Source of the DNA: Octopus vulgaris
Lineage: Eukaryota
Direction: 5' to 3'
Assembly: GCA_951406725.2 (NCBI GenBank)
Contig: OX597824.1
Location: 84,754,001-84,818,000, forward strand
DNA length: 64,000 nt
A model generated the notes under the pieces. The model had not been told where the DNA came from. It did no database searches and was given only the letters and a program-made list of their open reading frames with translations. The stretch's first letter is position 1. Each line of letters opens with the position of its first letter. Made by a program: the position numbers and the translations under genes. This document shows, piece by piece, positions 1,916-50,553 of the stretch.

Positions 1916-2167
1916 TGTCGAAGTCAAGTCATGACCAAGTAAAATCACTTCCTAAGCTCAGTAAGTCCTTGCAAATATTCCGAAAGACGAAGTGCCGTTC
2001 ATGAATTCGTTTTGAAAGTCGTGGGACCGACTTTACATACATACATATATACATACATACATACATACATACATACATACATTAATAAAGATAAGTTTAA
2101 CACATTAAATTACCGCATAACATCTTCATTAACGCCACCACTGAATTTAGGACGTTTATATTACTTA

Positions 2168-2562
2168 CTAGCAGTATCGCCCGGCGTTGCTCGGGTTTGT
2201 AAGGGAAATAACTATATAAGCATTTTTAGAGAGTTATAGCCAAAAATTAGCAAAAAAAATGCATTAAAAATGGGAAAAAATGATGGTAAATTTTTTAAAA
2301 TCGTTGACTCATCGTAGACATTTTTAGAGAGTTACTTCCCTTATATAATAGCGAAAAAATGCATTAAAATGGGAAAAAAATTATGGTAAATTATTTTTAA
2401 AATCGTAGACTCATCGTAGACGCGCGTTAATACCCAGAAGGGCTCGATATGAATCACGACTATAAGATACCCGCTTTTGGTTAAACTGCACCGCAAAATG
2501 TGGGAGTAGTTAGGAATCTAAATCGTAGGAGACAGACACACAACTTGACTTTTATATATGAG
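2168..2562 (-). mobile_element. Non-autonomous Helitron
   Basis: Reverse complement of 46958-47361; 3' GC hairpin CCCGAGCAACGCCGGG followed by CTAG|T. Confidence 0.8.
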
Positions 2563-21867: not shown

Positions 21868-21968
21868 AAAAATATAGAACACTTCGCGAATTTGCGTGTC
21901 ATCCTTGCACAGATGTCATGCTAATCTTCTCTGTATTGTTCCAATTTTAGAATGTGTACCGCCGTAGC
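21868..21968 (-). pseudogene. U6 snRNA retro-pseudogene, near full length
   Basis: Minus strand matches U6 over ~101 nt (CTAAAATTGGAAC..TACAGAGAAGATTAGCATG..GCAAGGATGACACGCAAATTCG..TATTTTT) with about a dozen substitutions. ACAGAGA and AGC are intact, the ISL is mutated and the first ~6 nt are missing. Confidence 0.95.
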
Positions 21969-22037
21969 TATAATTCGACATCTGCAGTAACAGCTGCAAC
22001 CATAGAAGCACCACCAACAAAATCAGCAACAGCAACA

Positions 22038-23825: not shown

Positions 23826-24656
23826 CATGTTGAAAGTTTTATAGTAAAATGTTAAAAAAAAATTCAAAAAAAGTCCCGTAACATTTAATTCATTTTTTGT
23901 TGTTTCTAAATTCAGTCACGTAGCTTTATTATAATCTAACTACTAAGCTTTAAAAAAATCGTTCCAGTGGAACAATTATACCTTTTATATATATCACCAA
24001 ATTTCACTTCACAAAACGAAAATGCAATTGCTTCGAACCATAGCACACGTAGCAGAAGGAATGTTCAAATGATAGATCAATTCAAGTGTCCAGTGGATAA
24101 TATGAATTTGTAGTGACTTGAAATGGCGGCTGTGTAAGTGAGCCAGTGTGTGTAGGCGTAAACTGTGAAACCAGCTGTTCACATAACAGTAGTTATTGAA
24201 TTTTTAATCATTTTGAGATCATATAATACTCAATTTTACTCAAGATTATGTGTTATCAGCGGTCAATAAACAAACAAATTTCCGTTTTATAAGTATTATA
24301 GATAAACATAAATAGGTAGATACCTTATATATATATATATATAACACCAAACTTCACAAAATGAAAATACCATTGATTCGAATCGTAGCACATGTAACGC
24401 AAGGAGTGTTCAAATAGTTGATCGATTCAAAAAGTGCTTATCTGTAATTTCGAGAGACCCTTCCCTCCTCGTCAGGCGTGGAGGGAAGAGTCTCTTTTCA
24501 GAAAAATGATTCGTTAACGAGTGAGTCGGATGTGAGATCGGTTGAAAACAAGCAAAAAAAAAAAAACTAACAAAGAAAAGAAAAAAATCTGAGGCTTCCT
24601 CTTCCTCACCCCCAAGCAGCTTTCAGGGGGTAAAAAAGCATGTCAGAGGTCAGATT

Positions 24657-24852
24657 CCGAGTTCGATTCCAAGCAGTGATCTGAACAATAACAATAATAA
24701 TAATAATAACATCGAAAAATACCTTAAGAATGAGAACCCAGGTTCGAAATTTCCCCCAAGACACATGAAGAAGGCCGGAGGGTATATTAGCCGAAACGTT
24801 GTGTTAACAACAAACAAGATGAGAACAAATATCCGTCGAATGTAAATAATGT
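24657..24852 (+). mobile_element. Family H2: retroposed element with B-box, (AAT)n and hammerhead-like 3' region
   Basis: 12-bp TSD AGAGGTCAGATT at 24645-24656 and 24853-24864; begins CCGAGTTCGATTCC; hammerhead fold at 24760-24805 with C3>A; homologous to 42931-43130. Confidence 0.8.
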
Positions 24853-24986
24853 AGAGGTCAGATTAGTTGAAAACACACGAAAAACCCTTAATTATTACCA
24901 ATTTCATTTAGTATTATTAGCAGTCAACGTACAACACAAAGTTCCTTTTTTATAAGTAATAAATGAATGATAACTTAAACAGAGGT

Positions 24987-26971: not shown

Positions 26972-27534
<563 letters not shown>

Positions 27535-32806: not shown

Positions 32807-32873
<67 letters not shown>

Positions 32874-32961
32874 GTTATTATTATTATTAGGCGACGAGCT
32901 GGCAGAATCGTTAGCGCGCTAGACGAAATGCTTTGCAGTATTTCGCCCGTCGCTACGTTCT

Positions 32962-34838
<1,877 letters not shown>

Positions 34839-36090
34839 CGTCCGCCATTACGTTCTGAGTTCAAATTCCGCCGAGGTCATCCTTTTGGGAATCAATAAAA
34901 ATAAGTACCACTTGAACACTGGAGTCTACGATCGACTTATCCTCTTCCCTGAAATTTCTTCCCTTGTGCCAAAATTTGATATTGTTAATATAACTCAGTG
35001 AGAGATCAGCACACGCCTTCAAAGTGATGCTGGGTCACAAATATACGAAGCCCAATATCCCATCATCACTACCTGTTGCATAAGGGTACACTAGGCACAT
35101 GCATCACAACCATATGTGCGCGGCATGGTGGCCTTATATCAAGATCACGTATACCCTTGCAGGTTGGGGCCCAGTTAGGAATTTCTTCAAGTAGAGCAGT
35201 CCATTCCGCTCAAAAAGGTCCCTGAATTAAGGTTGTTTAAGGATGATAAACGAAACACCTTTCGGGATCAAATATTATGTGTACATGTGTAACTAAAGTA
35301 ATAATACGTTTTAATATATTGTATAATGTCTTTTATCTCACACCTCATATTTATGTAAATGTGTATAAAATGTACATTCCTAAGAGTTTTGTAATACGGT
35401 GTATGAATGAATGTGCTATTGAGGGCGCAGTAAATGAAAGAATTGTTGTTGCTGTTGTTGTTGTTGTATATGAATTTGATAGCGTGAAGATTTCCTTTTA
35501 ATTTTCCATTCGAAACACACTTTATTCAAGCATAACAAACCCAGATTTTCTTTCGAATACTTGTAAAAAGAACTGTGATTGCTTAAAGTAACGCTGCCAT
35601 TAACACTGCGGTGGGTAGACAACAGAAGTATGAGGTTTGTTTCACAAACTCACAACATTTTATTTACTCACATTACTTTTTCGCAACTACAAAAGGACAA
35701 CCACACACAATTAATTCAACTGACAAAACACTACAAAAAGCCAAAGCACACAACTAAATATACGAAAGGAACAAAATAAAGAGTGTAGTGAACATTCGAT
35801 AGAAGAAAATGTTCCGAATATTCAAATAAGCAATTTAGAAAACAGTACAAGTAACAAGGATCGCACTAGCGATGGTTCCAAATATTGCGATCTGTTGAAA
35901 AAGTATTTGTGTGAAGGCAAACCTTCCTCCAATGTAAAGTGAACAGACAGGATTTTCGAAACATCACAGTTATAAAGAAATAAATGTAGATGCGAAAATT
36001 TTGTGTAACTGAACAGCATTTTCATTTTTGGATTTGGTTTGCAAGATTCTTTATATGAGTTCGTGTGTTGAAGCATATTCTGTTGTATCT

Positions 36091-42876: not shown

Positions 42877-42930
42877 GCAATAAAAATCTATGCCAATTTA
42901 ATCCCGAGCAAGGCCGGGTATTTCTGCTAG

Positions 42931-43130
42931 TAATAATAATTATAACATCGAAAAACACCTCAGGAAGGAGAACCCAGGTTCGAAATTTCCCCAAGACACC
43001 TGATGAAGGTTGGAGGGTATATCAGCCGAAACGTTGTGTTAGCAACAAACAAGATGAGGACAAATACCTATCAAATGTAAATAATGTAAATAATGTACAT
43101 AATTCCTCATCTCTTAAATATAGAACTGTA
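42931..43130 (+). mobile_element. Family H2 hammerhead-bearing element
   Basis: Homologous to 24700-24852; extends further 3' into (TA)n. Confidence 0.8.
42995..43040 (+). ncRNA. Minimal type I hammerhead ribozyme with canonical core
   Basis: GACAC-CTGATGA-A-GGTTGG-AGGGTATA-TCAGCC-GAAAC-GTT-GTGTT: stem I GACAC/GTGTT, 6-bp stem II with wobbles, palindromic AACGTT stem III. Confidence 0.75.
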
Positions 43131-46957: not shown

Positions 46958-47361
46958 TCTTTATATATAAAAGTGAGGTTGTATGCTGTCTGTCTCCTAC
47001 GATTTAGATTCCTAACTACTCCCACATTTTGCGGTGCAGTTTAACCAAAACCGGGTATCTTATAGTCGTGATTCATATCGAGCCCTTCTGGGTATTAGCG
47101 CGCGTCTACGATGAGTCTACGATTTAAAAAATAAATTACCATCATTTTTTTCCATTTTAATGCATTTTTTCGCTATTATATAAGGGAAGTAACTCTCTAA
47201 AAATGTCTACGATGAGTCAACGATTTACAAAAAAAATTTACCATAATTTTTTTTCCATTTTTAATGCATTTTTTTTTGCTATTTTTTGGCTATAACTCTC
47301 TAAAAATGCTTATATAGTTATTTCCCTTACAAACCCGAGCAACGCCGGGCGATACTGCTAG
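46958..47361 (+). mobile_element. Non-autonomous Helitron, complete
   Basis: A|TC 5' end, 3' hairpin plus CTAG|T, no TSD, internal ~83-bp direct repeat. Confidence 0.85.
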
Positions 47362-48279
47362 TATATATATATATATATCGAAACGTGGAGTAGATGAAAC
47401 AAAGGCGACTGAAGAAGGGGAATTTTCCTTGTATTGTATGTCCTGTACTCTATTTTTTCTTTGTTTAAGAAAAATGTCCATTTCCTTGGTTTTGTGTTTA
47501 TGTTTTCGTTTCTCATTGTGTTCGACGTTTTTTGGTGTCCTGTACCCATATATGCATGTATATATACATGTAGAGGTAGGTAAGTACATATATGTATGTA
47601 TATATGCATATGTTTTATTTATTTATTAATTTATATATATATATATACACAGACACACTCGGTCATCGATTTCATGGCATATAAAACGCACTTTTAAAAA
47701 AAAAGTCAGTGTCAAAATATCATTCCGGATCCTATATGCAAGATAGGCTTATATTACATACTTTCATGTGCCATATCTTTACTCTTTCTTCTTCGAATAT
47801 GCCTTTCTGAAATTTGGGTGCGTCTAATATGCCCGTGCAGCTTTTCCGCCGTATATATACGCGCGCGCGCGTGTGTGCTACAGAATCTCCCCCAAAACAA
47901 GAACCCATTGATTAAGTATTATCCTAGCCTAATAGGATTATCTATGAAGTCAATCAAGCAATGCCATTGTATAGAGTAGCCAAAAACTATGAATCCAAAA
48001 CATGTTCAGCCTTAAGAAAATGAAAGACAACTTCAGAATAACGAGACACCAAGATATAAAAGATTCCTTAACCAGTACATCAGACACAGATTCCCACCTT
48101 CAGCTGCCTAACGGATATCCCAATGGTTTCGACACTTAGGCAGTACCATTCACTCCGGCGGTGTTAACAGCATTAAAAGCAAAAACACTACTTGGGAATC
48201 AATAGACTAGCAACAGAAACTAAACATTAGCGTAAAATGCCCACTACACCAATACCTGCTTATTATTATAAATAACAAT

Positions 48280-50062: not shown

Positions 50063-50553
50063 GTAATGTAGATAGGAGAGGAACTTGTTTTAAAACATAC
50101 AGTTCGGACATGTAACAGACATGTTTTAATCGTACACACACACAAAGGACTTATTGTTAATGTTGATTATGAATATCAACAATATAGCTGAGAGGAAATA
50201 CCTCCGAGGAGCTTTCTACATATTGTAGGGTCGTACATATGTTATACAGTACATTTTTTTTTAGAAATCCGCATCAACTTAGATTATTCATGCAACTGGT
50301 TTACAGAAACTCCGCTTGTTATTGTTTAAAATCTAAAACAAACGAAAAACAAAAAAGATAATTTCAACAAAAAAAAAAAAAAGCCAACTGAGAAATTTTT
50401 TGAACATATAGACAATGCAGATGGGAATAGATATCTCGTCTTTGAAGCTAAAAGGAGAAATCAAAGAACGTTTCGGTATCAATTTCCCTCTTCAGCGAAG
50501 CATATTTTACTCAGTACAACTTAGAAGTGGTCTATCTGTGTTTGTGTGTGCGA

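Follow-up and report, generated by a model that had tools for sequence, protein, structure and literature searches.

Several described systems combine some of the parts found in a repeat within a 64,000 nt stretch of the Octopus vulgaris genome (GCA_951406725.2, contig OX597824.1, positions 84,754,001 to 84,818,000 of the forward strand; hereafter the window). In the Anolis Penelope-like element (PLE) Poseidon_Ac, as described in passages of PMC11167929 and PMC8557442, one open reading frame (ORF) encodes a reverse transcriptase (RT) followed by a C-terminal GIY-YIG domain; a pseudo long terminal repeat (pseudo-LTR) overlaps the ORF start, a hammerhead ribozyme overlaps the first codons, and insertions show two 3′ end classes 30-40 nt apart (the tail), inverted 5′ partners and heavy 5′ truncation. 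The octopus family has all of these features in common with Poseidon_Ac, but differs in its pseudo-LTR, which opens with a tRNA-like head holding both A and B boxes, followed by an (AAY)n leader, in having no TTTT on its sense strand, and in placing its start codon upstream of the whole hammerhead rather than at stem II. The mapped promoter of Penelope itself resembles that of a long interspersed element (LINE) and is TATA-less (passages of PMC2377424), whereas the octopus pseudo-LTR has the tRNA-like head.

Similar short repeats have been described in other animals. A repeat resembling a short interspersed element (SINE), with RNA polymerase III (Pol III) transcription, a tRNA and a hammerhead, is already known in schistosomes (Sm-alpha and Sj-alpha; PMC6765202, PMC4918200); in it, as in the octopus repeat, a single short unit combines a type I hammerhead with tRNA-related sequence and what appears to be a Pol III promoter. 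However, the schistosome repeats are non-coding, many are arranged in tandem, their canonical hammerhead releases monomers, and the passages on them describe no autonomous partner with the same head; the octopus module belongs to a coding PLE, and its copies end at PLE tail positions. PLE-derived non-LTR retrozymes have also been described (PMC7229834; bioRxiv 10.64898/2026.07.22.740005). These are likewise short hammerhead repeats related to PLE pseudo-LTRs, though they form tandem arrays and circular RNAs while octopus copies are solo or head-to-head, and the relevant passages describe no tRNA head on an autonomous PLE. Finally, tRNA-derived SINEs (SINE2; passages of PMC3531059) match the octopus repeat in their A/B-box head, ~300-bp dispersed copies in the thousands and target duplications; in contrast, the octopus partner is a PLE and not a LINE, the autonomous element has the same head, and the body codes for protein. 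Full-text searches of the literature, with passages of PMC13282606, PMC8967140, PMC5786205, PMC3531059 and PMC10886601, revealed no autonomous PLE that has a tRNA head or is driven by a Pol III promoter; subscription papers, supplements and Repbase/Dfam lay outside this search, so the family may be catalogued as a SINE or as Penelope.

A preliminary description of the window, made from its letters, had proposed that the repeat is a 5′-truncated tRNA-SINE that borrowed its mobilization tail from a PLE, a self-cleaving SINE or SINE-retrozyme hybrid. The present analysis points with good confidence to a different reading: a 5′-truncated pseudo-LTR copy of an autonomous Penelope/Poseidon-type PLE that likely begins its RNA at the tRNA-like head, with Pol III as the probable polymerase.

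A tRNA-like head on the pseudo-LTR of an autonomous element

Extending the family in the 5′ direction identifies longer copies with a ~73-nt head, an A box at +7 and a B box at tRNA spacing, so that the 5′ truncation proposed earlier is borne out and the focal copy has lost its A box. A profile hidden Markov model built from 35 distinct tRNA sequences of the same genome matched the head in 9/9 loci (E from 8e-6 to 0.011). Candidate donors, drawn from a tRNA sample of 7 amino-acid types, are Arg(TCT), best in one comparison, and Thr, Cys and Ala, about equal in two others; an Ile-type arm pattern gave no match. Just upstream of the head is a small palindrome, a 4-5-bp hairpin that is absent from the best fold of one natural copy.

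The PLE expected to share the tail exists, and it is an autonomous element with RT and GIY-YIG. In particular, at two hammerhead-anchored loci an inverted ORF end runs into the head, and among 30 loci picked by PLE protein the head directly follows the stop codon in 25, while 3 have a body without a detected head and 2 have nothing; the spacing from ORF stop to head is 32 nt. The head also occurs upstream of the PLE start codon. Head, (AAY)n, ATG, hammerhead, tail and ORF are contiguous in two natural copies (L228 and L238), and two (L224 and L238) are open in frame from the leader ATG across the hammerhead and tail into the ORF N-terminus. Because of this in-frame reading, what had been taken for a SINE body and tail corresponds to the first ~53 PLE codons, with the hammerhead positioned within the first ~25. 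The tail is continuous with the ORF N-terminus, as a 27-mer across the junction has 170 genome matches at up to 2 mismatches. Together, the head, (AAY)n, hammerhead and tail are the pseudo-LTR of an autonomous Penelope/Poseidon-type element; this anatomy, and mobilization by the PLE, are held with high confidence.

The PLE open frame has 569 aa and matches RVT_1 (E 2.7e-6), followed by a GIY-YIG-like motif that was read by eye in a 186-aa piece without a Pfam match; PF01541 is present in some homologues. No CxxC linker was seen in the translations; Neptune and Nematis have an extra Zn-finger linker between RT and endonuclease. The hallmarks of a PLE are present, including pseudo-LTRs, an inverted 5′ partner and an optional 30-40-bp tail. 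Close sister families have proteins 55-68% identical; relatives in the metagenome scan are only 34-42% identical, viral contigs yielded none and prokaryote genomes one weak match, and a PKR-type N-terminal mark was found in just 2/26 long homologues. Two homologues (P0003 and P0071) have N-terminal peptides like the hammerhead-coded stretch, which suggests that related PLEs also carry a ribozyme in frame.

The hammerhead was identified earlier as the minimal PLE type, and its core letters, extra A before stem II, G10.1-C11.1 pair and palindromic AACGTT agree with the features listed for such ribozymes in passages of PMC4209133. Rfam hammerhead models had no match in the window, in three loci or in two short stretches, and folding the monomer gave no gain in stability over shuffled sequences (z -0.25 and -0.68); the call therefore rests on motif geometry. 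Across 97 copies not selected on the hammerhead, a single substitution within it is shared, and it falls at position 7, a free position of the core (71 T, 25 A). The core is kept in 40/92 spanning copies, and copies differ from the majority by ~7% through scattered changes, with no shared stem change. The ribozyme of the Anolis element needs protein and is dispensable for insertion in vitro, according to passages of PMC11167929. In octopus, the hammerhead does not set the 3′ end, and it may cut the mRNA within its first codons, so limiting translation. Three raw RNA runs and one contig set, all unstranded, were placed on one locus (L133), where coverage drops toward the ORF 5′ end as it does in genomic copies; no RNA pile-up was found there at the head start or cut site, a result that is uninformative on cleavage or start as the locus' own 3′ hammerhead has a deletion.

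Separately, the window contains a second minimal hammerhead-like motif (50455-50510, minus strand), in which CTGAAGA precedes GAAACGTT with a weak stem II; it has two weak matches elsewhere in the genome.

Insertion ends, duplications and haplotypes

An exact hammerhead 29-mer has 2,454 genome matches, versus 0 for its reversed control. Rough copy estimates, in which exact-match counts are corrected by match rates in ORF-selected copies, rise along the unit from ~2,400 for the 26 nt upstream of the head (647 exact; match rate 15/55) to ~10,300 for the head (3,443 exact; 16/48) and ~24,500 for the hammerhead (2,454 exact; 5/50). The short units are below 1 kb, interspersed and present in at least 100 copies. 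Target-site duplications (TSDs) of at least 9 bp flank 33/115 family insertions versus 1/115 control junctions, with 12 bp as the commonest length; by class, duplications of 9-15 bp occur in 28/65 inverted and 5/50 single insertions.

The arrangement of neighboring copies was surveyed in 86 anchored copies, taken from the first 100 matches listed, all on one contig (C1). Among these, 52 have an inverted partner upstream, a PLE signature (passages of PMC8557442), and 2 have a direct partner downstream. Their 5′ ends are in the body (20), in the AAT run (22) or in copies that reach the head (44); of these last, 26 stop between -17 and +7 of the head start, 12 stop inside the head and 6 continue upstream. 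The stops from -17 to -11 are fold-backs at the palindrome.

Further, 3′ ends were surveyed in 343 arms that were not anchored on the hammerhead. Measured from the cut site, 118/343 end at +45..+59 and 187/343 at +80..+94, in agreement with the optional 30-40-bp tail of PLEs (passages of PMC8557442) and with the pair of sites at which RT starts internally in the Anolis Poseidon element (passages of PMC11167929). These ends bear on whether the family is a non-LTR retrozyme, whose hammerhead would free monomers or circles, from which tandem arrays are then copied. The minimal hammerhead with a palindromic stem III fits such an element, as do 12/343 arms with 5′ ends at 0..+4 of the cut site (versus about 4 per 5-nt bin upstream and 1 at -5..-1), which could be copied 3′ cleavage products. 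The same cluster fits RT stalling at stem I, however, and a bigger one, of 28 arms, is found at +35..+39, outside any ribozyme. Moreover, 3′ ends avoid the cut site (3/343 arms at -6..+8) and direct tandems are limited to 2/86 loci among the matches listed. A retrozyme origin is very improbable on these counts; the class is marked by tandem hammerhead units and cleavage-set monomer ends, which do not agree with these counts, and the earlier notion of a SINE-retrozyme hybrid is not supported.

The short copies could instead be an independent tRNA-SINE with a PLE-derived 3′ part, spreading from its own master copies, as the preliminary description had it. Short head-to-tail copies outnumber ORF-linked ones by about 3 to 1, they have both boxes and no TTTT, solo copies with intact boxes could be re-transcribed, and the SINEBase criteria of size, copy number and tRNA identity (passages of PMC3531059) are formally satisfied. 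Nevertheless, the head belongs to the autonomous PLE, whose coding 5′ end is what had been taken for a borrowed tail. In addition, three haplotypes, defined by three linked sites, occur both in ORF-linked arms (14, 8 and 7 of 37) and in short arms (18, 11 and 32 of 72, a set enriched for the focal haplotype through the choice of L001-L030); all haplotypes are thus found in both classes, and no separate SINE lineage is apparent. The RNA of the Anolis element must include ORF sequence up to +172, beyond the RT start sites (passages of PMC11167929), and if this holds for the octopus element, solo copies may lack it. An independent SINE is accordingly improbable, though less so than a retrozyme. 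The SINE2 class, which is non-autonomous and dependent on a partner LINE, was rejected, the unit being the terminal repeat of an ORF-bearing PLE with subfamilies common to ORF-linked and short copies.

Many loci among L221-L250 (e.g. L226, L227, L232 and L248; also L323) are template-jump mosaics, in which a pseudo-LTR piece meets a second template at a point 30-400 nt into the ORF start; they are a natural record of PLE template switching.

Transcription start and polymerase

The proposed mechanism starts from direct observations: how the unit is laid out, its two classes of 3′ end, the inversions at the 5′ side, the duplications, and the 5′ ends that pile up where the head starts. The PLE opens with the tRNA-like head and the (AAY)n leader, followed by the start codon, the in-frame hammerhead and the tail; then come the RT and GIY-YIG ORF and the head again. 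Its RNA would start about 7 nt upstream of the head. The PLE protein would bind the ORF start and begin the cDNA internally, about 50 or 90 nt past the cut site, by analogy with the Anolis Poseidon element (passages of PMC11167929). A cDNA begun in the 5′ pseudo-LTR would run off the RNA 5′ end after ~300 nt, yielding SINE-sized copies that often jump to a second template or fold back, while a cDNA begun in the 3′ pseudo-LTR would enter the ORF. In the focal copy, the cDNA would have ended earlier, within the head, and joined its target via the 5-nt microhomology.

That the RNA starts at the tRNA-like head is likely, as suggested by the 26/44 head-reaching copies, among the matches listed, that stop at the head start. 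Initiation there is probably from a Pol III internal promoter. Pol III transcription requires that the transcript lack T runs (T4 in vertebrates). Among tRNA loci of the same genome, 23/30 have a run of at least four T within 40 nt, and in 9/30 the first such run is exactly T4. When column-majority sense letters are considered (ORF columns at coverage of at least 18), such runs number 0 in 2,284 ORF columns, where 3.9 are expected from composition, and 0 in 295 pseudo-LTR columns (0.8 expected); at any single place TTTT occurs in at most 13% of copies. In contrast, two control families of the same genome, labeled from their translations, have 14 (Neptune-like PLE; 8.4 expected) and 12 (CR1-like LINE; 8.9 expected), and 8/8 related metagenome PLE ORFs have 2-12 TTTT runs. 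The absence of TTTT across the 2.6-kb sense strand is, as a sign of Pol III, suggestive only.

The Neptune-like control, a second PLE family (L251-L280), has copies that are mostly 90-96% identical. In the CR1-like family (L281-L305; e.g. G000:C3:128329299-128330689), 40/40 scored copies are 99-100% identical over 1.4 kb, which indicates very recent activity.

A fuller and more tentative proposal, which falls somewhat short of an even chance, is an autonomous coding PLE transcribed end to end by Pol III: it would have captured a tRNA as internal promoter, purged TTTT from its ~2.4-kb ORF, had its uncapped RNA translated via the unstructured (AAY)n leader, and shed SINE-sized copies of its 5′ end. 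Its central step, that Pol III makes the whole PLE mRNA, is possible but doubtful to the same degree. The role of the leader in cap-independent translation would follow by analogy with plant-virus leaders.

A number of observations count, in whole or in part, against the main reading of an autonomous PLE whose RNA begins at the head, probably through Pol III. Compared with single tRNAs, 6/6 heads scored are 60-63% identical over 73-76 nt, which reaches the SINEBase criterion of at least 60% over at least 60 nt but is borderline versus shuffled heads (means 53-54%, maxima 57-63%); Rfam scans of the window, three loci and two short stretches gave no match to a tRNA model, and ARAGORN called no tRNA in the window. 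No fully intact full-length copy of the PLE was found. The variation at hammerhead position 7 is also a coding choice between D and E, and the stem II covariation that had been proposed as a check was not seen across the surveyed copies of the family. Among 96 5′-junction arms, only 8 reach the head, of which 2 stop at its start, 5 stop inside and 1 (L319) runs on into the previous ORF end, meaning that some templates are longer. The sense strand is T-poor (21.6%), runs of at least four G are likewise 0 (2.9 expected), codon-aware nulls for the TTTT deficit give P = 0.013, 0.037, 0.054 and 0.18, and the bias toward TTC among Phe codons falls short of significance (P 0.057 and 0.15).

Several of these points are what one would expect if the head were a passenger, a tRNA or SINE fragment in the untranslated spacer of a PLE transcribed by Pol II, with the 5′ pile-up caused by a coincident Pol II start or by RT stalling at the palindrome. 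The template of L319 crosses the boundary, chance may account for the TTTT deficit (P up to 0.18, with G4 also 0), and an uncapped Pol III RNA makes a poor mRNA; further, the known promoter, that of Drosophila Penelope, is internal, LINE-like and TATA-less (passages of PMC2377424). However, the A and B boxes hold tRNA spacing, and the boundary is ~14 nt before the intact A box, a spacing usual for Pol III starts. The 4-5-bp hairpin is a weak block for a ~4-fold step and is missing from one natural copy's best fold, and all five control ORF sets of the codon-aware test have 8-12 TTTT runs. A passenger head is therefore considered unlikely, albeit the strongest of the rival explanations, and a start at the tRNA-like head is preferred.

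The focal insert and its implications

Most of the anatomy first reported for the insert is confirmed (Table 1). The perfect 12-bp duplication (AGAGGTCAGATT) was recovered, as were the 196 bp between its two copies, the B box (GTTCGATTCC), the internal (AAT)n, which here takes the form (AAY)n, and the hammerhead, whose C3>A change is at 24765. The insert had been said to start at the B box; the box is inside it, but the true start is 4 nt further upstream. Besides C3>A, stem II of the focal hammerhead has one mismatch, and the ribozyme is predicted to be inactive; with no A box and a broken core, the focal copy is predicted to be dead. The sister copy is 89% identical to it over 158 nt. Its core is intact, as reported (CTGATGA at 43000-43006; GAAACGTT ending at 43035, the base after which it is predicted to cut), its start codon is mutated, and its 5′ end begins in the AAT run, adjoining a Helitron-like end, with no tRNA head. 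The focal copy is of the tail-less 3′ class and the sister of the tailed one.

Table 1. Features of the focal insert and its sister copy (window positions)
Feature	Position	Strand	Remarks
Left TSD copy, 12 bp	24645..24656	+	Microhomology: last 5 nt also shared with element sequence upstream of where the insert starts; the family often has duplications of 9-15 bp
3′ third of tRNA-like head, PLE pseudo-LTR; B box at 24661-24670	24657..24683	+	A box lost through 5′ truncation
(AAY)n, variable length, 5′ leader of PLE ORF	24684..24709	+	
Leader end and PLE ORF start; start codon at 24730	24710..24759	+	L224 and L238, both natural copies, read in frame
Minimal type I hammerhead in coding frame; predicted cut after 24800	24760..24805	+	Geometry as in passages of PMC4209133
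3′ part to the tail-less end class, about 52 nt past the cut site	24806..24852	+	Two 3′ end classes
Right TSD copy	24853..24864	+	
Sister copy: AAT remnant, body, hammerhead at 42995-43040 (intact core), full 30-40-bp PLE tail, headless	42932..43129	+	

A hairpin with a CTAG end adjoins the sister copy (42903-42931), and similar ones are found at 2166-2195 (minus strand), 27380-27410 and 47332-47362; we take them to resemble Helitron 3′ termini. Elsewhere in the window, a copy of U6 small nuclear RNA (21868-21971, minus strand; 91.4 bits) has several changes and a short repeated T-rich 3′ end that adjoins another repeat, and is probably a retrocopy. A local direct duplication of ~1.1 kb (32837-33977 and 33778-34937) is 88.6% identical.

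If Pol III makes the mRNA, the family would be an autonomous Pol III-driven retrotransposon, of a kind not found in print. SINEBase divides retrotransposons into LTR elements and LINEs, transcribed by Pol II, and SINEs, transcribed by Pol III (passages of PMC3531059), and Kojima states that SINEs cannot encode protein (passages of PMC5786205); a PLE mRNA that begins with a tRNA head and is free of Pol III terminators would break the division of polymerases. Two questions would then become testable, namely the start site of PLE transcripts, and the way in which translation proceeds on an uncapped RNA whose first codons hold a ribozyme. Whether or not Pol III is involved, the family illustrates that SINE-looking repeats can arise without any SINE, as run-off copies of the 5′ end of a PLE. 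Such an origin is relevant to repeat annotation, and suggests a source for repeats that combine a tRNA with a hammerhead, such as Sm-alpha.
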